Shown: positions 70 to 48,943 of the stretch, piece after piece
Layout: each line of letters opens with the position of its first letter
Numbering within the stretch: the first letter of the stretch is position 1
Translations under genes and position numbers: made by a program
Notes under the pieces: generated by a model
What the model saw: only the letters and a program-made list of their open reading frames with translations
The model's database searches: none
Told to the model about the DNA's origin: nothing
Source: a virus
Direction: 5' to 3' (one strand)
Virus genome (UHGV): UHGV-0196072
DNA length: 49,208 nt

Positions 70-498
70 TCAGCCAGCAGCTGTCGCCACCTGTCCATCA
101 GCCTGCAGAACACTCTCCGGCAGCCGTTCAGTCAACGGCACGCCTTCCAGGACCTTCATGCCGTACTGGCCAATCCAGGTACTGACCGAGTTGATATTGC
201 CTGCAATGAAGTCTGTCACTTCATCAATCAACCCTTTCACCACAGTGTCAGTGCTCTGACGCCAGTGGCTCTCGATCGCCACCAGCAGCGGGTCAGAACC
301 ATTACTGACAGACTGCTCGCCAACGGCGTACGTCTTCTTCTTCGCAGCATCAGTGATGCAGACCAACTGGCTGGTCTGAACAGCGCCAGCTTCTGCCGCG
401 ACGACCTGCATCGTCAACGTAGCCACTTTGTTCCCGTCGGCATCAACGCTGGATGCATAGAACATGGAGAGCGTCAGATCCGTGCGTTGATACATCAT
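70..498 (-). CDS. hypothetical protein (142 aa), last late-strand gene before cos
   Basis: ORF coupled by an ATGA overlap to the upstream ORF 495..779. No recognisable motif. Confidence 0.35.
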   Translation of the reverse strand: MMYQRTDLTLSMFYASSVDADGNKVATLTMQVVAAEAGAVQTSQLVCITDAAKKKTYAVGEQSVSNGSDPLLVAIESHWRQSTDTVVKGLIDEVTDFIAGNINSVSTWIGQYGMKVLEGVPLTERLPESVLQADGQVATAAG

Positions 499-779
499 TG
501 CTTACCTCCACGACGATGGCGGGAACGGCGACCGCCGGGAGGCGGAGATTGTTGATCCTGTACCAGCTCACCCTCTAAAGGTTCCTGAGCCGACTCAGCA
601 GCCGGAGCAGGAGTCGAGGCCGGTGCAATATCATGTGCAATCGTCAGTTTCAGCAGGGGGCGGCCGCCCTGGACATGCTCAAAATGGATGCCATGTACGG
701 CTTCCTGCATCCGTGACTGACCATCCGTCTCCAGAACGGTCAAAGCGCCATCAACGTATTCAATTTTGAAACTCTTCAT
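495..779 (-). CDS. hypothetical protein (94 aa)
   Basis: ORF begins MKSFKIEY. Its first codons lie inside the duplicated module, as does the start of the 1173..1598 gene (shared M-K..K-I-E). Confidence 0.35.
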   Translation of the reverse strand: MKSFKIEYVDGALTVLETDGQSRMQEAVHGIHFEHVQGGRPLLKLTIAHDIAPASTPAPAAESAQEPLEGELVQDQQSPPPGGRRSRHRRGGKQ

Positions 780-796
780 CGGGTTACCTTTTGCGA

Positions 797-955
797 ATAA
801 AAAAGCCCCACAGATGTGAGGCTACTGGTTAAATATCAGGGTATTACTGTGAAACCACAACGTGTAAGGTTACAACTCAGCCCGTTCGTGGTGGAACACG
901 AACGAACAACGAATTAGCGGAGTTATGGCTGATTAACTTTGCTTAAGGGAATAAA
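797..955 (+). repeat. Copy A of an about-160-bp duplicated divergent-promoter / 5'-leader module
   Basis: About 80% identical to 1617..1773. Contains an 8-bp-stem hairpin (883..904) 52 nt upstream of the ATG at 956, and a conserved AAGGGA RBS. Confidence 0.7.
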
Positions 956-1210
956 ATGTCATCAGACGAAAAAATCGCCATTCTTGAAGATCGAATTAAA
1001 AAGATTGAGGGTGTAACCACGCATTTACTCATTCGCTCTGAACTAACCATGTGCATCGTGTCAGCAATGATTGGTGCAGACGTCATAAGCCGCGACGGTG
1101 TGAAGGAGATGATCAATAAAATCGACTTATCTGAATTCCAGGCACCTGCCATCACCGAAGCTGAAAGAAAGATTATCCTTCAACTTGTTGACAGGGTTGA
1201 GGTAGTTTAA
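956..1210 (+). CDS. hypothetical protein (84 aa), AT-rich moron region
   Basis: ORF with an AAGGGA RBS 8 nt upstream. Preceded by leader copy A. Confidence 0.4.
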   Translation: MSSDEKIAILEDRIKKIEGVTTHLLIRSELTMCIVSAMIGADVISRDGVKEMINKIDLSEFQAPAITEAERKIILQLVDRVEVV

Positions 1211-1598
1211 TTTCACCTTTTTTAATAGCGGCAGTCGTTAATAATGGTTTGTCGCTATCCACATCCATAGGCATTTTATTCCGGGCTATCTCACTTCCTG
1301 ACAACTCCACGCAACCAAACACTGGCATGCCCGGTGAACGTTCATCTTCCACGGCCACCAGCTGCGATTCGTTATACCAGCGCTCAGTGGCACATTTATC
1401 TGCAGCCTGATAATGAACGAAGTACTGATTCTCGCCGTTAAGACTCTGCGAACGCGCTTGTACCTCACCAAATTCTTCACTGATACGCAGACTTACCAAC
1501 TGACCCAGACAGAATTTAAAATCTTTTGCCAGTGGCAAAATTGCGCAGCCGTTTTGTTCAATTTTCATGATTGCGCAGCCGTTTTGTTCAATTTTCAT
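1173..1598 (-). CDS. hypothetical protein; N-terminus carries a 10-codon tandem duplication (MKIEQNGCAI x2). The downstream ATG at 1568 is an alternative start
   Basis: ORF overlaps the end of 956..1210 by 38 nt. The start region lies within the 30-bp tandem duplication. Confidence 0.3.
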   Translation of the reverse strand: MKIEQNGCAIMKIEQNGCAILPLAKDFKFCLGQLVSLRISEEFGEVQARSQSLNGENQYFVHYQAADKCATERWYNESQLVAVEDERSPGMPVFGCVELSGSEIARNKMPMDVDSDKPLLTTAAIKKGEIKLPQPCQQVEG

Positions 1599-1599
1599 G
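1540..1599. repeat. Perfect 30-bp tandem duplication (attgcgcagccgttttgttcaattttcatg x2)
   Basis: Identical 30-mers at 1540..1569 and 1570..1599. Duplicates the start codon and first 9 codons of the minus-strand gene. Confidence 0.95.
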
Positions 1600-1616
1600 T
1601 TTGACTCTCTCTATAG

Positions 1617-1773
1617 CAAATAGCCCCACATATGCGACGCTACTGGGTAAATATCAGGGTGTTACTGTAAAACCTCAACGTGTAAGGTTGCGGCTCAGCC
1701 CATCGGTGGTGGGATACTGATGAACACAGCAATGGCGGAGAGATGGCTGATTATTTCCGCTTAGGGATAGAAA
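1617..1773 (+). repeat. Copy B of the duplicated promoter/leader module
   Basis: Aligns with 797..955. Hairpin at 1701..1722 sits at the same 52-nt spacing from the ATG at 1774. Confidence 0.7.
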
Positions 1774-1878
1774 ATGAACTTTAGATTAACCTGCGTTGAT
1801 GGTATCCAAAATGCACATCAGAACCAGAAGCTTCGCGTGAATATTGTGGGGGGTGACAATTCCCTTTATACCGCCTAA
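1774..1878 (+). CDS. small hypothetical ORF (34 aa, MNFRLTCVDG...) downstream of leader copy B
   Basis: ATG at the position equivalent to the 956 start in copy A. Below the 60-aa cutoff of the ORF track. Confidence 0.25.
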   Translation: MNFRLTCVDGIQNAHQNQKLRVNIVGGDNSLYTA

Positions 1879-1963
1879 ATCGATATATCTGGAAAGGATC
1901 TCAGGAATGCTACTTTAGACCAGATTGAGTCATGGGCAATTGCATATGCAAAAGATCAATTTG

Positions 1964-2158
1964 CTAACTGCAGGAAGTAATCCTTGACGATAAGTGAGTC
2001 AAACTTACTTGTTGTGTGGCCACACTGCGTTCAAGCGAAAGAATGCATTCTTTAACTGCATTGACTGAGCAGTTTGTCGATTTAAGAACATCTTCAAGCT
2101 GCTCTTTTAGCTCTCCCACTTCTCGCTCTAATGCTTCAATTCGTTGTTCTGAAGTCAT
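1964..2158 (-). CDS. hypothetical coiled-coil protein (64 aa)
   Basis: ORF with a heptad-like N-terminus (EALEREVGELKEQLEDVL), immediately downstream of Rz. AT-rich. Confidence 0.3.
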   Translation of the reverse strand: MTSEQRIEALEREVGELKEQLEDVLKSTNCSVNAVKECILSLERSVATQQVSLTHLSSRITSCS

Positions 2159-2203: not shown

Positions 2204-2716
2204 TTATCCCTTATCGGGGATAGATGTTCTCACCGATTCGTAAATCCACTCGCAGGTCATTCCTGCTGTGTAGCGTTCGTCAGCGATTGCAGCATATCGT
2301 CGAGCTTCTTCTGCAAGGTCTCCAAGCATGTCGGCAAGCATTCCGGCGGTGGCGCCGGTTGTTTTGCTTCTGACGGTAGCGGCAAGACTTGCGGTGTGCT
2401 TTGCGGCGTCCAGGCGGGTGGCAAGGTTTTTTGCCTGCTGGCGCAGCTGGTTAACAGTGCCAGAGAGATTAGCGGCAGCAGCACGCGCTGCAGCGGTTTG
2501 GGCTTGAGCATCTTGTACGGCCTCATCGCGGGCGATCAAGCGCCCCTGTTCAATCATCCGGGCGGCGGTTTGCGCGTTAACTTCCTGAGCCGATTCGGCG
2601 CTATCACGTTCAGCCCACCGCTTTTCCCATGCCCGATCGCTCCAGGCTAAACCAGCAACAAAGGCACCAGCAATAACCATTACGGCGATAGCTGGCTTTA
2701 AGTAGGCTGCACTCAC
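2204..2716 (-). CDS. Rz: Rz-like inner-membrane spanin (i-spanin)
   Basis: 170 aa with an N-terminal TMD ([17 protein letters not shown]) and a periplasmic Ala/Gln-rich coiled coil. Follows the endolysin and embeds the Rz1 frame. Confidence 0.8.
2257..2511 (-). CDS. Rz1: Rz1-like outer-membrane lipoprotein spanin (o-spanin), fully embedded in the +1 frame of Rz
   Basis: Signal peptide and lipobox (LLTSC) followed by a Pro-rich mature region. Embedded architecture as in lambda. Start taken at the internal Met (MLKPKPLQ). Confidence 0.7.
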
Positions 2717-3243
2717 TGGTCAATCCCCCAGCAAGTCAGCGCGCTTTCCTGATCACGGCGAGAGACCTGGCCGTAACAATTGTTGGAACGCACGCGGCAA
2801 TCTTTTCCGCCATCAAAAATCCACCGGCGAATTTCAGCGCAGGCGCCTTTACGGTCACCGGCATTCAGCTTGCGGTAGAAAGTGGAAGGAAAGCACTTAC
2901 CGGGCCCGATGTTATAGGGGCAGAAACTGGCAATTCCGACCTTTTGAGGAGGCGTAAGGTGAACCCGCACATTCTGATCAACCCATGCCAGCGCTTTATT
3001 GCGCTCGACGGCATTCACCTGATCGCATTTGGCCTGGGTTAACTTCATCCCTTGGGTTACAGGCCTTCCATCTACCCGGGTCGCTCCACGACATATCGTC
3101 CAGATACCGGCGCCATCGCGATACGCTGTAAGGCTGTTTCCTTCTTTCTCATCCAGGAACTGATCCATCAGGGTTGGGGCGGATGCACCAGCCGCTATTA
3201 ATCCCAGCATGGCTGCGCTGAGTTTCGTTTTCAGGGATGCCAT
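2713..3243 (-). CDS. R: SAR endolysin (phage 21 R21-type lysozyme, T4L-like E-8-D-5-T catalytic triad)
   Basis: N-terminal Gly/Ala-rich weakly hydrophobic segment ([22 protein letters not shown]). Motif [11 protein letters not shown]. Overall collinear with R21. Confidence 0.85.
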
Positions 3244-3244
3244 T

Positions 3245-3499
3245 TTATTTATCCTGCGGCGGTTGCGTCACATCCCCCCGCCTGAGCGCATCCTCATAGG
3301 CTTTGGTTTGCCGACGTTTGAAATAAAGGTTCGTAAAATAAGTGGCGACGCCGATCACTACACCACTGACAAGCGCAATGAAGTTCCAGTCAAGACTATG
3401 GAACCAGTCATAAACACGCGCCAGGCCAGTACAAATCAGGCCGCCTGACGTGCAGTACGTAGCCGCTGTAAAGATTTTGTCAGGCATGATTTTGTTCAT
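3245..3499 (-). CDS. S: pinholin (S21-like class II holin) with a dual-start motif MNKIM
   Basis: Two TMDs and a C-terminal TNLYFKRRQTKAYEDALRRGD matching S21 (TNLYFKIREDRRKAARGE). Immediately upstream of the SAR endolysin. Confidence 0.8.
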   Translation of the reverse strand: MNKIMPDKIFTAATYCTSGGLICTGLARVYDWFHSLDWNFIALVSGVVIGVATYFTNLYFKRRQTKAYEDALRRGDVTQPPQDK

Positions 3500-3542
3500 C
3501 CGTCACCTCCTGCTGAGGTGTTAACCGTGAGATTAAAAAAAG

Positions 3543-3601
3543 GTGGGTATTATAACCACTAAACTATTGCACGCTTCGATAATGGTGGGTATAATACCCA
3601 C
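3543..3601 (+). promoter_or_regulatory. hicAB promoter with two palindromic operator-like sites
   Basis: First site gtgggtattataaccac at 3543..3559. Second site gtgggtataatacccac at 3585..3601, a perfect 17-bp palindrome containing a TATAAT -10 at 3590..3595. Candidate -35 TTGCAC at 3568..3573 with a 16-bp spacer. GGAGG lies just before the hicA start. Confidence 0.55.
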
Positions 3602-3620
3602 ATGTTAACGAAACGGAGGA

Positions 3621-3812
3621 TTGATGAGCAGTGCAGAGTTAATCAAAAAACTGATAGCTGATGGTTGGGTTAAGCAAAGACAGACAGGAAGCCATGTAAC
3701 GCTAACAAAACAGGGAATAGAGAAAATAATCACCATTCCCCACCCCAGAAAGGATTCTTCAAAGGGGATTGTTAGACAGGCTCAACAGATATCAGGACTT
3801 AAATTGATGTAA
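3621..3812 (+). CDS. hicA: HicA mRNA-interferase toxin (the ATG at 3624 is the likely start)
   Basis: About 62 aa with a GSH...PHPRKD HicA/YcfA signature. Followed by hicB. AT-rich moron. Confidence 0.75.
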   Translation: MMSSAELIKKLIADGWVKQRQTGSHVTLTKQGIEKIITIPHPRKDSSKGIVRQAQQISGLKLM

Positions 3813-3875
3813 AAGGGAGCGGCGAAAGCCGCCCCTCTCTGCAAGGGTTATCAATACGCAATTAGTGAGGTACCT

Positions 3876-4286
3876 ATGATTTATCCGCTCTTTATTTTCA
3901 AAGCCGATGACGGCACTTTTGATGGCTACTTTCCTGACATCGAAGGTTGCATGTTTGCCGGGAACAACCTCGAAAGCGCATTGAGGGACGCGGAGTCAGC
4001 TTTCGGTCAGCATATGGAAGTTTTGACTGAACAAGGCGGTCATGTGCCTGCGCCAAGTGATCCAGCCGATTATCTGGGTGATGAACGTCTCACCATGGAT
4101 AACGGCTTCTTGGCGCTTGTCGAGATTGACCCATCAAAATACGAAACAAAAGCCGTCAAATTTAATCTCACCATGCCTGGTAATCTATTGACTGCAATCG
4201 ACAGTTACATAGAAAAAAATGGACGGTACAAAAACCGCTCCGCTTTTCTATCTGAGATTGCAAGAAAAGAGATAGCCAGAGGCTAA
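3876..4286 (+). CDS. hicB: HicB antitoxin (HicB N-domain plus C-terminal RHH DNA-binding domain)
   Basis: 136 aa. C-terminal ribbon-helix-helix-like (NRSAFLSEIARKEIARG). Positioned immediately after hicA. Confidence 0.75.
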   Translation: MIYPLFIFKADDGTFDGYFPDIEGCMFAGNNLESALRDAESAFGQHMEVLTEQGGHVPAPSDPADYLGDERLTMDNGFLALVEIDPSKYETKAVKFNLTMPGNLLTAIDSYIEKNGRYKNRSAFLSEIARKEIARG

Positions 4287-43283: not shown

Positions 43284-44777
43284 TTAGTTACCGGGCATCA
43301 TGTTGAGCATCTGGCTTTCTGTGGTGGTACTGCTGTCTGCACCCGCCTGAACCGGCGCAGGAGAATGTTGCTGCATAAACTGCTCAAAGGAACCTGCCGC
43401 AACGCCGCTATTTCCGGCGGCAGGAAGAGGCGCAGCCGACAGTAAACTTTTGGCCTGCTCGAGCGTCATACCGGGCACCGATGACAACTGTTGTGCCAGT
43501 TCCTCACGTCCGGAGGCCTCTTCCAGCGCCATGACACTGTCGGACAATGACGCAGCTTTTGGGGAGAGCGCCAGCAAGGATTTCGCCTGCTCCAGTGTCA
43601 TGCCCGGCGTCGCCGCCAGAGCCTGTGCCAGCGGTTCCCGACCGACAGCTTCATCAAGGGACATAATGCGCTCTGGCACACTTACCGCCGCTTCAGTAGT
43701 TTGCTGTGGCGCTGAGGATAAAATAGCCTGCGCCTGAACGAGACTCATCCCCGGCTGGCTGGCCAGCATCTGTGCCATCGCCTCGCGCCCTTTTGCCTCA
43801 GGGCAGGTCAGGATCCCCATAACACGCTGGTTTTCCTGGGTAACAGCTTCCGCTGCAGATAATTGAGACATATTTCCTCCGGTTTTTTCGGGATTTCTGA
43901 TAGCGGATGCCATCACATTCACGGCATCTGCCGCATTAACCATTTCATCGGCCAGTCCGACACTGATAGCCGAAGCGCCGTCATACACCGCCGCCTCGGT
44001 TGCCAGCACGTCATCTAAAGACAGTTGCGTGTATTGCGCGACCTTTTCAGCAAACATCGTTCTGGCGTCATCCATTCGTTTCTGGCAGTCAGCCCGCACG
44101 TCTTCTGGTAGTGACTGATAGGGGTTTAAATCCACCTTATGGCCGCCGGAAAAAATCAACGTGATTTCCACGCCGTCCTGCTCCAGTTGCCCGGCGTAGC
44201 TGGTATGGGCCATGACCACACCAATCGACCCCAGTCGTGATGTCTGCGTCACCAGACGTCGATCGCAGGCCGCCGCTAACAACATCGCCGCCGAACAGGC
44301 CATATCATTGGCCAGCGCCCAGATGGGCTTTTCCCCCCTCAGTCGGTGGATCATGTCAGCGCAATCAAATGCGCCGGCCGCCTGTCCACCCGGGCTGTCG
44401 ATGTCCAGCAAAATTCCGGTCACGTCAGGGTCGGCGATGGCCTGCTGAAGCCGACCCAGCACACCGTCATAACCCGTCATGCCGGAGAACGGGCGCATAC
44501 CACCGAGTTTATGAACCAGACTGCCGGTGACGGGCAGTACCGCTATACCGTCAACCACCTGATAGAAACGCGCCTGCCGCTTGCCGTCAGACATAAAGGC
44601 CGTGGTGACCTGCGTCATATCCGTGGTATCAAGACTTTCCTCACTCTGGGGGATCCGCAGGTTATTAACGCCCCCTTCCCTACCCAGAGCGCAAAAGAAA
44701 ACCCGCGCGTAGGCGGGTTCAAGTAACAGTGGGGCGTTCGTGGCCTGGCTGTATATGTGCGGGAGATTACGTTGCAC
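43284..44777 (-). CDS. C: prohead protease / minor capsid protein C (S49 peptidase) with a nested in-frame Nu3-like scaffold region at the C-terminus
   Basis: Collinear with lambda gpC (NLPHI..LLEPAYARVFFCAL). S49 core. C-terminal repeats. Confidence 0.85.
   Translation of the reverse strand: MQRNLPHIYSQATNAPLLLEPAYARVFFCALGREGGVNNLRIPQSEESLDTTDMTQVTTAFMSDGKRQARFYQVVDGIAVLPVTGSLVHKLGGMRPFSGMTGYDGVLGRLQQAIADPDVTGILLDIDSPGGQAAGAFDCADMIHRLRGEKPIWALANDMACSAAMLLAAACDRRLVTQTSRLGSIGVVMAHTSYAGQLEQDGVEITLIFSGGHKVDLNPYQSLPEDVRADCQKRMDDARTMFAEKVAQYTQLSLDDVLATEAAVYDGASAISVGLADEMVNAADAVNVMASAIRNPEKTGGNMSQLSAAEAVTQENQRVMGILTCPEAKGREAMAQMLASQPGMSLVQAQAILSSAPQQTTEAAVSVPERIMSLDEAVGREPLAQALAATPGMTLEQAKSLLALSPKAASLSDSVMALEEASGREELAQQLSSVPGMTLEQAKSLLSAAPLPAAGNSGVAAGSFEQFMQQHSPAPVQAGADSSTTTESQMLNMMPGN
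43428..43799 (-). repeat. three tandem about-45-aa coding repeats (REx.AQxLAxxPGMTLEQAKSLLxxAP) in the scaffold region of gpC
   Basis: aa 327-357, 376-406 and 418-450 of gpC. Lambda C carries this motif once. Confidence 0.7.
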
Positions 44778-46347
44778 GTTTATCCTCCTCTGTCTTGCGA
44801 CTGTCCTGAATTTGTTGTTGATACGTGGACGCTATCCAGACCGGACTCGACAACCCGGCCAGCCTGCGCTCTTCGGACTCTCTGACCTGCTGGCGGAAAA
44901 TCTCCTGGTAATCTTCCCCCATGATGGCCAGTTCTTTTTCATACGTGCTCAGGCCTGCTTCAATACGCATGACCGACTCCTGCACCTCTTTCAGTCCGTC
45001 AATGGCCATACGCCCGGCACCAATCCATTCCGCACGGCACCAGCTTGAGCGCGCCTCCCAGAAAGAAAAACGTGTACGCGGTGCGCGAATGATGCCCCGC
45101 GCCAGCGCCTCTTCCAGCCAGCAGGCAAACATCTGTGTGGCCATCCGCCCGGCAATGAATTTACGGCGCCCAAGAAAATACCGCCACGACTCGTTGGCAG
45201 ATGCGCGGGCGCTGGAATAGCTGACCTGCGAATAATCTCGCGACAGCTGTTCGTAGGACACGCCCAGCCCTGCGGCGATATAGCGAAGCAGCGCCTGCTC
45301 CAGCGCGGAAAATCCGTTATCAGAATCCTGCGCGGTCTGCAGGTTAAGCTCATCGCCCGGGTACAGATGAGGAATTTTCACACCACCCAGTTTGATATTA
45401 TTTGCCTGATAGTAACGGGAATACTGAGACAGCATCTTCATCAGCGGGCCGTTGTCCCCATCCGCCGCGGCGATGTATTCAAACGCCTTTTCCGAATCCA
45501 GTTCACTCTCAATGGTGGCCGCGTACATCGCTTTAACGATGGCAGACTGCAGCTGTGTCGCCTGCAGAGTGTCCAGCATTTTTAGCCTTTCCATCACGCT
45601 GAAGAACTGGTTGGCCCCACGGGTCTGTCCGTCCTCCACCGGTTCAAACACGTGGATCATGGCCGGCCTGCCCGAGGGAAGAGTTTTAGGTACCCGCGTC
45701 CAGCGCCCGGTGCCGGAAAAAGGCCATGTATCTTCACTGACGTGATAGGCCAGCGCTTTCCCGTTTTTATCGATTTCCACGCCGGCCCTGAGCTGGCGGT
45801 TACCCTGAGCGTGACCTGGTGTGTCAATGCGTTTCGGGCTGATGGCTTTAAAACGGGTACGGAACAATTGCGTGGTTTCAGCATCCCAGACAGGCTGGAC
45901 GAACACTTCACCGTTGAAAGCATGAACACCCACCCCTTCCCGGATAAACTCAGTAAAAGTGCGCTTTCCTTCAATGTCTATTTCACCAAAAACCGAATCA
46001 CAGTATTCGGTCCAGGCACATTCCACTTCATCCACAAAGCTTTTTGCCGCGGCTTCCCGCATCCCGAGATACCGCCAGTTCGGGCGGTAACTGATGAGGA
46101 AAAGGTGACCGACGATATGATCCTTGTGCAGGGCAACGGCATTCGCCGCAATACCATTGTTACGAACCAGATCGTCGGCACGCGCGTTACCCAGTCTCAG
46201 TGACGGAAGTAACGCCGCATCCACGCTTTCAGCGGGGGGGACCCAGTCCGCCATTTGCCCGCCAAACCCGACACCCCCTCCGCTGTAACTCAGGCTTTCC
46301 CGTAGAGGAGCGCCGTGCACATCAACCAGCACAGGTGATCGCTTCAC
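44767..46347 (-). CDS. B: portal protein B
   Basis: 526 aa, highly similar to lambda gpB along its length. Confidence 0.95.
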
Positions 46348-46550
46348 AATCTCACCCCCGCCGGCGGTCGACGTTTTGAGCTCACCAGTAACGACGATTC
46401 CAGCTCCGCAATGTACCGCTTCAGGTCACCCACCGACGTGGCAGTGAACTCCACACGGCGCCCATCTTTTTGCACCGTGGCAACTCGCTTGCCCGTCATC
46501 AGGTCATGCAGCGCCGAGCGGGCTTCCAGTAATTCAGTGGTCGTTGCCAT
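46344..46550 (-). CDS. W: head-tail connector protein W (start at the internal Met [10 protein letters not shown]; the ORF is open to 46727)
   Basis: Nearly identical to lambda gpW ([37 protein letters not shown]). Confidence 0.85.
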
Positions 46551-48444
46551 TAATACCTCCGGACAGCGTTGCCGCCAGTTGTTCAAGAGAAAGAGTGCTC
46601 TGCCCTTCGTTTTTCCTCGATGCTGCCAGAACATCCAGATCCAGTTGCCAGCGCTGAACGGAAACCCGGAATGCCGCATAGGCATACACCAGGCAATCCA
46701 GCGCTTCGTTCCTGCGCCCTTTTGCATCCCACAGCAGTCTGATTTTTCCGTTCACCAGCTTTTCCACCAGCTCTTCGGCCACCAGCTGTTTCGCCTCCAC
46801 TTCAGAAAAAATTTCCGGATCGTCAGGGAAGTGAAAAGCGTAGGGGGTTGCGGTATCTGGCGGAGCGGTGTCTGCCCCCATTCTGGAGTAAAGCATCTCT
46901 TTGGTCGTATCCGTACCGATCTCACACAGATAGGCCCCACTCTGATTGCGCTTTTTAGGCATGGTAATAATCGGTTTGCCGTATACCGATGCCCCTTTAA
47001 TGGGCAGAACGCGGAAGATGCCGTGTTTTTTTGAACGCCGGTATACGATTTCCTGATCAATGCCGCCGGTATCCCAGCAGATGCGGGATATGGTCATCTC
47101 CGTGCCGTCAACGTGGCGGTATTTTCGGTTTATCGCATCATCCACGCGCAGAAGGGTAGCCTCGTCATCATGACGCCCCATGATAATTTGCTTATCCACA
47201 AGAAACGCTTCTTCGCCCGGCGCCCACCCCCAGACGTACATCTCGTAACGGTTACGCTGTGAGTCAATACCTGCGGTCAGGTACACCACCCGCTCAGGGA
47301 CAGACGCGGCATAATGCATGACCTTGTCCATCAGCAGTTCGTGGTTCAGTTTTTCCGCCACTGCCTCTTCGAACGTCTCACCAAGCGTCGTATTAACAAA
47401 GGTTTTCACACCGTTTGGATCTTTCAGCGCATCCAGCCAGTCATAGACAATCTGCACCCAGGTGGTAAACGGGCTGTAGGCTGTCCAGATGTGAAAGGTG
47501 ATCGTACGGGGCGAGGCGACTTCATTGCCGTCCGGACTAAAAAAAGTCAGACCGTCGCGGGTCCACAATCCCGTGTTATCACAAATCCAGCGCCCGGCAG
47601 TCTGGTCAAGTTCAGACTGCCGGATCACACATCCGTTATGCTCACACAGGTAATACGCCGTTTCCGGCTGGTCTTTTTCCCATTTGAGACCAAACGACGT
47701 CGAGTTGTCGCCAAATTTAAGATACTGCTCTTCACCACAGTGCGGGCAAGGAACATAGAACCGCATGAAGTGCGCCGACTCATTCGCTGCCTTTTCTATC
47801 TGGCAGGAACCTTTAATTTTGGGTGTTGAGCCGCGAATGGATTTGGGCCAGACAGAGCCTTCAATACGCTTGTCGCCCAGCAGCGTGGGTGAGCCTTCCT
47901 TTTCCACATCCGGTTCAAACGAGGAGAGTTCGTCATAACAGACCACATCGACAGATTTTTCACGATAGTTTTTGGCAGCTGCGCCACCAAGACACCAGAA
48001 GCCCACGCCTGAAGAGAATCGCTTCAGGGTGAGCGTGTTATCCCTGTGTTTACGCCCCAGCCAGGGGGAAAGCGCTTTCAGACAGGCAACATCCCGGAGA
48101 GTGGGCTCCACGTGAGATTTCATAAAATCTTCGGCAGCGGAATCCGTTGGCTGAAACAGCAGGCTGTTTCGGGATTTGTGCTCAATAAAATACCCTTCCA
48201 CCCCTAGCAACATTTTGGTGTAGCCAACGCGGGCGGACTTTATCAGGTTGATAGTGCGGATCAAATCGCTTCCCATCGCATTCATGATACCGACCTGGAA
48301 TGGCAGGGTGACCCAGTCTCCGGCGCCGTAAGATGACTCTTTCGGCAAAAAATAGTACTTGTCAGCCCACTCCACCGCCGTCATCGGCAGCGGTCGGATA
48401 AGCGGTCTCAGCCCCTCCCGGACTGCCCGCATCATATTATTCAT
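46534..48444 (-). CDS. A: terminase large subunit (gpA-like)
   Basis: Collinear with lambda gpA ([23 protein letters not shown]-terminal ALDC.VYA). Start at the Met aligned to lambda MNISNSQVNRL. The ORF is open to 48492. Confidence 0.95.
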
Positions 48445-48943
48445 CTGTACTTCGGATAAAATCATCCATCCACCCCGGTAATTTCTCATCAACGCGGGCG
48501 CAGGCGTTTGCCCCCTTCGCCACCAGTGTTTTCAGGTGATCGATCTGACGTGGGGACAGCTCCGGAAATTGCCGCTGCATGGCCAGTGGTATGCCATCAA
48601 GCGTACTGGATAGCTCCATCGCTACCCGGCTTAGCGCAAAGGTACAAAATGCCGCATCGATCAACTTACCCTCAGTAACCCGGTTCTTTAGCCGCTGTGC
48701 GATGGCCTGTTCTTCCGTCAGGTCAACCCGGGCCTGAAGTAACTTTTCCTCAAGATCGTCTTCACCCTCTGAAGATTTCTGGTTTTGTTGTCGTCTCTCG
48801 CGATCTATCTCCAGAACGGTTTTAACGTCATAAAAAACCTCTCTCCCCCGGCGCTCAACAGGAGGGACACCCCATTTATCAAATGCCTGAACTGAGATAC
48901 CTATGGAGGAGGCCATATCACTTTTATTCAACAAAAAGGCCAT
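48437..48943 (-). CDS. Nu1: terminase small subunit (Nu1-like)
   Basis: Matches lambda Nu1 (AFCTF.LSR.A.E..S.LDG.PL..QR.FPEL). ATG at 48943 with a GGAGGGG RBS. The ORF is open to a GTG at 48961. Confidence 0.85.
   Translation of the reverse strand: MAFLLNKSDMASSIGISVQAFDKWGVPPVERRGREVFYDVKTVLEIDRERRQQNQKSSEGEDDLEEKLLQARVDLTEEQAIAQRLKNRVTEGKLIDAAFCTFALSRVAMELSSTLDGIPLAMQRQFPELSPRQIDHLKTLVAKGANACARVDEKLPGWMDDFIRSTDE

Follow-up and report, generated by a model that had tools for sequence, protein, structure and literature searches.

The viral genome UHGV-0196072 is 49,208 nucleotides (nt) long, and the whole stretch is called the window here. It contains two copies of an element of about 160 bp, copy A and copy B, each of which ends at the start codon of a short plus-strand open reading frame (ORF). 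We refer to the element as a module and to the gene behind it as its cargo. An earlier reading made from the letters alone (the sequence-only reading) had claimed a repeat of about 160 bp, and a repeat search and alignment bear this out with an ungapped direct repeat of 159 nt and 79% identity between 800-958 and 1618-1776. The claimed boundaries also hold. Copy A begins 18 nt from the ATG at 779 of a minus-strand ORF (495..779) and ends at the ATG at 956, and copy B begins about 19 nt from the ATG at 1598 of another (1173..1598) and ends at the ATG at 1774. On balance, we favor the explanation that both copies are members of a dispersed control module of about 160 bp that serves "reverse morons" in HK97-, HK022- and ES18-like lambdoid prophages. 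A moron is an extra gene in a late operon that has its own promoter and a flanking intrinsic terminator and is presumed to be expressed from the prophage (via PMC3594210). The parts of the two copies are the following.

796..823, minus strand: intrinsic terminator of copy A, from a terminator scan; stem-loop 823..804 (AGCCUCACAUCUGUGGGGCU), then UUUUUAUU.
825..846, plus strand: upstream block of copy A; CTG-N9-CAG dyad at 825-839, and TATCAGGGTATTA at 834-846, a perfect match to the IHF core WATCARNNNNTTR.
865..870, plus strand: −10-like hexamer of copy A, TAAGGT; the −35 region at 842-847 (TATTAC) is poor and the predicted start is at about 875-879.
877..955, plus strand: leader of copy A; covariance model match at 874-950 (71.8 bits), minimum free energy (MFE) of the fold −24.4 kcal/mol, z = −3.7.
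Within it, 5′ half, plus strand: candidate helix P1, 877-882 (UCAGCC) with 927-932 (GGCUGA, in the P3 loop); helix P2, 883-890 with 897-904, loop GUGGAA.
Within it, 3′ half, plus strand: helix P3, 917-923 with 936-942; Shine-Dalgarno (SD) sequence AAGGGA at 945-950.
956..1210, plus strand: cargo A, an 84-aa ORF from the ORF list, antisense to the late genes.
1612..1641, minus strand: degenerate terminator of copy B; hairpin 1641..1622 with a broken U-tract (CUAUUUGCU), not called by the scan.
1643..1688, plus strand: upstream block and −10 of copy B; dyad at 1643-1657, IHF-core match at 1652-1664 (TATCAGGGTGTTA), TAAGGT at 1683-1688.
1695..1773, plus strand: leader of copy B; covariance model match at 1692-1768 (70.4 bits).
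Within it, 5′ half, plus strand: candidate P1, 1695-1700 with 1745-1750; P2, 1701-1708 with 1715-1722, loop GUGGGA.
Within it, 3′ half, plus strand: P3, 1735-1741 with 1754-1760; SD sequence AGGGA at 1763-1767.
1774..1980, plus strand: cargo B, a frame of 68 codons broken by an in-frame TAA at 1876-1878, of which 34 aa are called as an ORF.

The two copies are not a private duplication. Copies A and B share 77% identity, and their identity to copies of the same subfamily on other contigs is 76-80%. Since they are no closer to each other than to the copies of other phages, they are family members and not the product of a recent local duplication. A profile built from four copies detects both at an E-value of about 1e−47, so the likeness is not due to chance. 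IMG/VR loci were collected by exact-pattern scans and then with nhmmer; the four-copy profile gave 151 matches in these loci, nearly all of full length, and a further scan brought the total to 210 matches and 120 distinct sequences. A first BLASTN against phage records found the module in HK633 and SaltyDalty. With the HK633-type copy as query, which is the commoner type, 26 phage records match, and the carriers among them include HK97, HK022, ES18, HK633, mEp213, mEp043, SPN3UB (in two places) and vB_SosS_Oslo. The module is also carried by 225 of 5426 complete E. coli genomes, where no annotation lies under any of the matches. The host range given here is that of the phage records and E. coli genomes. 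The pattern TCAGCNNNNNNGTGGTGGN{22,40}GGCTGA, run over genome contigs, proved too loose; its 120 loci were all chance matches in GC-rich genomes and none was confirmed by nhmmer. Two copies 2-4 kb apart are also found in contigs L004, L045, L095 and L155 and in SPN3UB, so it is not unusual for a phage to hold several reverse-moron units. A diverged branch occurs inside the lysis cassette of Qin/DLP12/Stx-like prophages of E. coli (L370:2420-2595, L371:2430-2615, L381, L382), between the DUF1327 (ydfR-like) gene and the lysozyme gene. This branch retains TATCAGG, the −10 and the leader and is without the late-strand terminator.

The module precedes annotated morons in HK97, HK022 and ES18, which answers a BLASTN check that the sequence-only reading had proposed. 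In HK97 it lies before gene 23 ("reverse moron product"), between the I-like gene/moron 22 and J. In HK022 it lies before gp23 ("srb protein; moron"), ahead of J, and in ES18 before gp25 ("possible moron"), beside an L-like gene. The HK97 and ES18 records label the left hairpin of the module "terminator". In HK633, as in the window, the module sits between the lysis genes and the terminase region. Some E. coli prophages have it ahead of J, others ahead of the holin gene or, in the diverged branch, between the DUF1327 and lysozyme genes. The left neighbors across carriers encode glucosyltransferase, L-like, distal-tail, J-like and tape-measure proteins, holin and lysozyme. Neighboring genes are on the opposite strand in 106 of 107 left flanks and 101 of 104 right flanks. 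The gene directly behind the module is in all cases a small one, read against the late genes.

The cargo varies as much as the position. The 77 distinct complete cargo proteins, most of them 65-95 aa, fall into about 25 BLASTP clusters. A 154-aa family matches Asp_protease_2 and an 87-aa family DUF1883; the other families have no Pfam domain and match only PHROGs of unknown function, and PADLOC identified no known defense family among ten cargo representatives. The sequence-only reading had offered, as one option, a mobile promoter cassette that delivers morons, and this part of it has fared well: the ~25 cargo clusters meet 15-21 left-flank clusters in many combinations and at varied positions in the late operon. 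Cross-tabulation of 129 loci gave 45 different flank-cargo combinations, which are expected from recombination within the conserved module and conserved downstream DNA. One left flank is followed by 11 cargo clusters, so that, as in morons, the gene is replaced at the same position in relatives; one cargo cluster stands behind 7 left flanks, and 8 cargo clusters share a single downstream DNA cluster. With different cargo clusters and different flanking genes, the family shows shuffling of both cargo and position. Behind the cargo, a plus-strand terminator is recognizable in 23 of 83 copies, compared to 4 of 83 shuffles. Cargo A has no match in Pfam, PHROG or PADLOC. The identical protein occurs in many genomes in an identical context (lysis genes, module, Nu1/GpA terminase). 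The read-through product of cargo B matches phrog_32074 (E = 3e−11) and is homologous to intact cargos of 65-67 aa elsewhere, and its in-frame TAA is kept in six near-identical prophages. Cargo B is probably an inactivated gene or pseudogene, the alternative being stop-codon read-through.

The part of the module that would be transcribed ahead of the cargo is a structured leader. It is 74-79 nt long in most copies and opens with an invariant UCAGCC. Among 90 distinct sequences, P2 (8 bp) is 97.5% paired, with changes on both sides at 5 of its 8 pairs, and P3 (7 bp, with a strong core of 5 bp) is 79% paired, with both-sided changes at 5 of 7. None of 500 shuffles equals the observed values, and slid partners pair at 29-45%. 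Pair counts were also made on an independent MAFFT alignment of 69 sequences, in which G.U cells outnumber A.C cells by 60:4 in P2 and 44:10 in P3. This excess means that the helices are selected in the plus-sense RNA. The sequence-only reading had already proposed a plus-sense RNA hairpin in the 5′ leader from the two window copies, and its details are correct: an 8-bp hairpin in both, the last stem base 52 nt before the plus-strand ATG in each, compensatory changes from G-C to A-T and from T-A to C-G between copies A and B, and G.T at two other P2 positions in copy B. It had also suggested examining the stem in homologous copies, and compensatory changes were found there. A single nucleotide polymorphism in copy B (1715 T>C), present in two related prophages (L373, L377), turns the G.U closing pair of P2 into G-C.

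Both loops vary hardly at all in sequence, GUGGGA in P2 and GAUGGCUGAUUA (12 nt) in P3. In the middle of the P3 loop stands GGCUGA, the complement of the invariant UCAGCC at the 5′ end, and a P1 pseudoknot is possible. P1 lacks covariation because both of its strands are so conserved. The MFE folds alternate between P1 with P2 and P2 with P3. Downstream of P3, an AAGGA-like SD sequence is present in 75 of 75 copies and the start codon follows P3 by 11-16 nt in 71 of 75. The leader matched no family in Rfam 15; the only matches were sub-threshold (≤21 bits), to generic terminators on the late strand. We also considered a leader peptide (AUGGCUGAUUACCUCUGA, MADYL) and rejected it, as several copies have AUA, ACG, CUG or GUG in place of the AUG, the stop is unconserved and an SD-like GGAGG abuts the AUG. 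The 5′ arm and loop of P2 (888-895, 1706-1713 and family-wide) read (C)AGTGGTGG, which is identical to Chi (GCTGGTGG) at 6 of 8 positions, probably by coincidence.

Nearly invariant loops on covarying stems point to sequence-specific recognition, and the leader could be a platform on which a host post-transcriptional regulator such as CsrA represses or tunes translation of the cargo. The consensus of CsrA from systematic evolution of ligands by exponential enrichment is ACARGGAUG. The leader has GGA in the P2 loop (GUGGGA), at the junction of the P3 arm and loop (AGAGGGAUGG, close to this consensus) and in the SD sequence (AAGGA), and the GGA that overlaps the SD sequence stands at a steady spacing (11-16 nt) from P3. 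However, copy A is without the middle GGA (GAGUUAUGG) and copy B has it in a shifted position, and three GGA in 75 purine-rich nt are not far above chance. We thus regard a CsrA-type platform as unlikely, though it is the strongest of the alternatives. The invariant loops by themselves fit protein recognition through CsrA-like GGA motifs about as well as they fit a role in the 5′ end and ribosome binding site (RBS) of the leader.

Upstream of the leader, positions are counted from the T of the invariant TCAGCC as 0, which places the terminator at −80 to −55. The block from −54 to −29 is highly conserved by column conservation, with G-38 and T-33 at 100% and G-37 at 98%. The IHF core consensus is matched perfectly at the same position in 67 of 83 distinct copies (a predicted site; the family sequence is TATCAGGGTGTTA). 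The window has 8 such predicted core matches against 2.4 expected, and two of these are the module copies. TAnnnT is present in 83 of 83 distinct copies at −12 to −7, with A-11 at 100%, and there is a purine at −2 in 81 of 83. The family −35 region is poor (TGTTAC), and the ~16 nt between the upstream block and the −10 are the least conserved stretch of the module. We infer that TAnnnT is a promoter −10 and that transcription would start within about 2 nt of TCAGCC, because the hexamer is conserved and no other candidate lies inside the module. Other readings of the block were rejected. A LexA (SOS) box does not fit, as every copy has N9 (13 nt from the start of TACTG to that of TCAGG) and LexA needs N10; patterns for CRP, FNR, PhoB, PmrA, RcsB, ArcA and sigma-54/E/32/28 gave no fit by eye. 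A hairpin in the spacer between −35 and −10 (TTAACC/GGTTAA) is unconserved in other subfamilies and thus concerns the DNA level only. A Dcm site (CCTGG) lies at −18 to −14 of the promoter spacer in most copies, probably by coincidence.

The perfect IHF core beside a CTG-N9-CAG dyad, together with the many genome positions and the shuffled cargo, would also suit a conserved block that is mainly a recombination or insertion site in DNA (IHF plus a recombinase, a cassette end), with the RNA helices being secondary. But no recombinase gene travels with the module in the carriers examined, the G.U bias and compensatory changes reveal selection on the plus-sense RNA, and the occurrence of the same left and downstream flanks with different cargo fits ordinary homologous exchange. 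We find a DNA-level site quite improbable.

Slightly less probable again is a ligand-sensing riboswitch or attenuator. A covarying structure, highly conserved unpaired bases, a possible pseudoknot and alternating MFE folds are what such an RNA would have. Nevertheless, the leader has no expression platform. We found no U-run after P2 or P3, and the SD sequence, part of an A-rich stretch that is unpaired, has no conserved complement, which argues against both an attenuator and an SD-sequestering switch; the attenuator named by the sequence-only reading is therefore abandoned. For the processing site that it also named, the data give no hint. The cargo is unrelated from copy to copy (~25 clusters, with Asp-protease-like, DUF1883 and many unknown proteins), unlike the coherent gene sets of riboswitches, and no Rfam family is matched.

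At the other end of the module is a terminator for the late strand. The sequence-only reading had called the module a divergent promoter, and this was mistaken: on the minus strand, the end beside the minus-strand gene is no promoter but an intrinsic terminator. The copy A terminator has a stem-loop of 8 pairs, 5 of them G-C, and a U-run as tail (UUUUUAUU). Most of the 68 distinct copies have a GC-rich late-strand hairpin followed by U6-7, and its stem comes in at least three different sequences. In the window subfamily, one stem pair is U.G when read on the minus strand but would be C.A on the plus strand, and the copy B hairpin folds with −8.4 kcal/mol on the minus strand versus −0.9 kcal/mol on the plus strand. 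Thus most copies, though not copy B, have at the module edge the flanking factor-independent terminator that is typical of morons. A late-strand small RNA that ends at this terminator and is antisense to the cargo leader, like OOP RNA or type I antitoxins, would account for the canonical U-tailed terminator at the late-strand end and the weak sub-threshold Rfam matches to small RNA terminators (NsiR1, isrD), but it is very improbable given that there is no conserved −10 (TAnnnT reads AnnnTA on the late strand), that P2 and P3 would hold A.C mismatches on that strand and that the Qin/DLP12-like branch has the leader but not the terminator.

What the sequences show directly is the family, its anatomy, the strand to which each RNA helix belongs and how varied cargo and position are. 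Under the favored explanation of a control module for reverse morons, the module would work on both strands. Lambdoid Q-modified polymerase is expected to pass terminators. On the late strand, the terminator would halt RNA polymerase that lacks the Q modification just ahead of the next late gene. On the plus strand, a weak sigma-70-type promoter would start an mRNA at UCAGCC, and a protein on the −54 to −29 block, where binding is predicted, would probably aid or control this promoter. The mRNA would begin with the P2/P3 leader, followed by an open SD sequence and a start codon at a fixed distance from P3, so any gene behind the module would gain transcription and translation signals. Cargo would be swapped through recombination between the conserved module and conserved downstream DNA. 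More tentatively, and as a guess, the leader may protect the mRNA by tucking its 5′ end into the P3 loop (P1) while presenting the RBS independently of the cargo. More doubtful still is the idea that the leader and upstream block are a new class of cis-regulatory RNA, a universal adaptor that would place dozens of unrelated accessory genes of Enterobacteriaceae prophages under one host signal or factor; IHF would be a candidate for the DNA, and for the RNA either CsrA or a different RNA-binding protein.

Several observations weigh against this account. The promoter and start are putative, assigned by conservation only; the consensus match is weak (3/6 at −10, about 3/6 at −35) and a promoter scan makes no call. 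The promoter may depend on an activator, or transcription may start at another place. The variants of P1 are of nine kinds, all one-sided and several breaking a pair, with no covariation. The single-sequence fold has a z of −0.9 to −1.8 for most copies, and only copy A reaches −3.7. The energy for opening the RBS is 6.09 kcal/mol with the natural leader compared to 6.49, and is lower in 66% of the sequences, which are not independent; this difference of 0.4 kcal/mol is too slight to count for much. Finally, copy B, with its degenerate terminator and interrupted cargo, may be decaying.

The morons of HK97 and HK022 are reportedly the subject of Juhala et al. 2000 (J Mol Biol 299:27), and the unit described here would count as a moron in their sense. 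The reverse morons of HK97, HK022 and ES18 are themselves copies of the module, but the literature searched defines morons gene by gene, whereas here one 160-bp unit is common to about 25 cargo clusters. In the literature searched, which covered sources other than Juhala 2000 and the original ES18 papers, we found no description of a shared portable module with a covarying RNA fold. The moron is a known kind of element, and the module shared across reverse morons and its RNA fold appear to be undescribed.

Other known systems resemble the module in part. The lambda bor gene (and iss) lies between Rz and cos in antisense orientation, as in the window, but the covariance model gave no match in lambda 44000-48502 or near iss in NRG857C, and bor is an analog rather than a member of the module family. 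STMMW_20121 of ST64B is an independently transcribed antisense moron (PMC7067206), and the covariance model found no module copy in ST64B. Integron Pc/attI and P2/P4-like hotspots also combine a constant expression signal with exchangeable, unrelated cargo. The module differs from integron-type systems in having no nearby integrase, attC-like site or recombinase, and its exchange looks homologous, via conserved flanks. The put RNAs of HK022, cis-acting antiterminators with two hairpins, are likewise found at the 5′ end of a phage transcript, and in the same phage; unlike them, the module leader is followed by a single short gene, often with its own terminator. A put-like antiterminator was rejected, as the model (filters off) over the whole of HK022 matches only the gp23 leader, not putL or putR, and the putL sequence is unrelated. 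Stem-loops at the 5′ end stabilize mRNA, e.g., in the ompA 5′ untranslated region. The module leader resembles such stabilizers in having structure within a few nt of the predicted 5′ end, where P1 would leave at most 2 unpaired nt, yet the conservation of its loops and of P1 goes well beyond what a generic stabilizer would require. AsxR and AgvB are Hfq-bound prophage anti-sRNAs (against small RNAs) of 51-60 nt that form convergent pairs beside PR′ (Tree et al., 2014, PMC4104026). They too are non-coding RNAs at conserved moron positions of lambdoid prophages, but the module RNA is an mRNA leader with another sequence and another location.

Temperate phages pass new traits to their hosts mainly through morons, and the expression of a newly gained gene in a silent late operon is usually handled case by case. 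The module would be a ready-made, recombination-portable unit of insulating terminator, promoter, structured leader and RBS. HK97-, HK022- and ES18-like phages reuse it, as do many prophages of E. coli, Salmonella and, probably, Klebsiella, and the cargo families that it serves number at least 25, nearly all of them without a known function. The module is thus a simple sequence tag for locating accessory genes, and its leader, which has no counterpart in Rfam, is a candidate for a new structured RNA motif. Predicted regulatory inputs, namely the IHF-like site and the loops with GGA, could steer many lysogenic-conversion genes together.

The window is a lambdoid prophage whose host is probably Klebsiella; by BLASTN, the phages on record that come closest to its flank are Klebsiella phages. 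Its lysis genes (holin, endolysin and Rz) are on the minus strand at 3499..2204, and matching genomes place the Nu1/GpA terminase just past the left end of the window. Two late-strand genes adjoin the module copies.

495..779, minus strand: late-strand gene of 94 aa (phrog_4567), directly downstream of the copy A terminator.
1173..1598, minus strand: late-strand gene of 141 aa (phrog_1935), between the two modules and converging on cargo A.

A transcript of 1173..1598 would cross cargo A and its leader in antisense, as far as terminator A. This gene and cargo A (956-1210) are convergent with an overlap of 38 bp (1173-1210), and the same kind of overlap is seen in genes 22/23 of HK97 and 22/23 of HK022. 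The convergent overlap of "forward" and "reverse" morons suggests antisense interplay. The sequence-only reading had also noted shared first codons in the two minus-strand genes. Left of the module the alignment amounts to noise, and the two proteins fall into different PHROG families, so this likeness is read as chance. A perfect 30-bp tandem duplication at 1540-1599, which doubles the first 10 codons (MKIEQNGCAI) of ORF 1598..1173, is present in the window and in six related prophages. The PHROG match of this ORF begins at residue 11, so the second ATG (1568) is probably the real start. A further unit antisense to the late genes is a plus-strand HicA/HicB toxin-antitoxin pair (3621-4286), which has the Q region on one side and the holin gene on the other and so immediately precedes the lysis cassette; a 22-nt inverted repeat at 3538-3606 lies in front of it.

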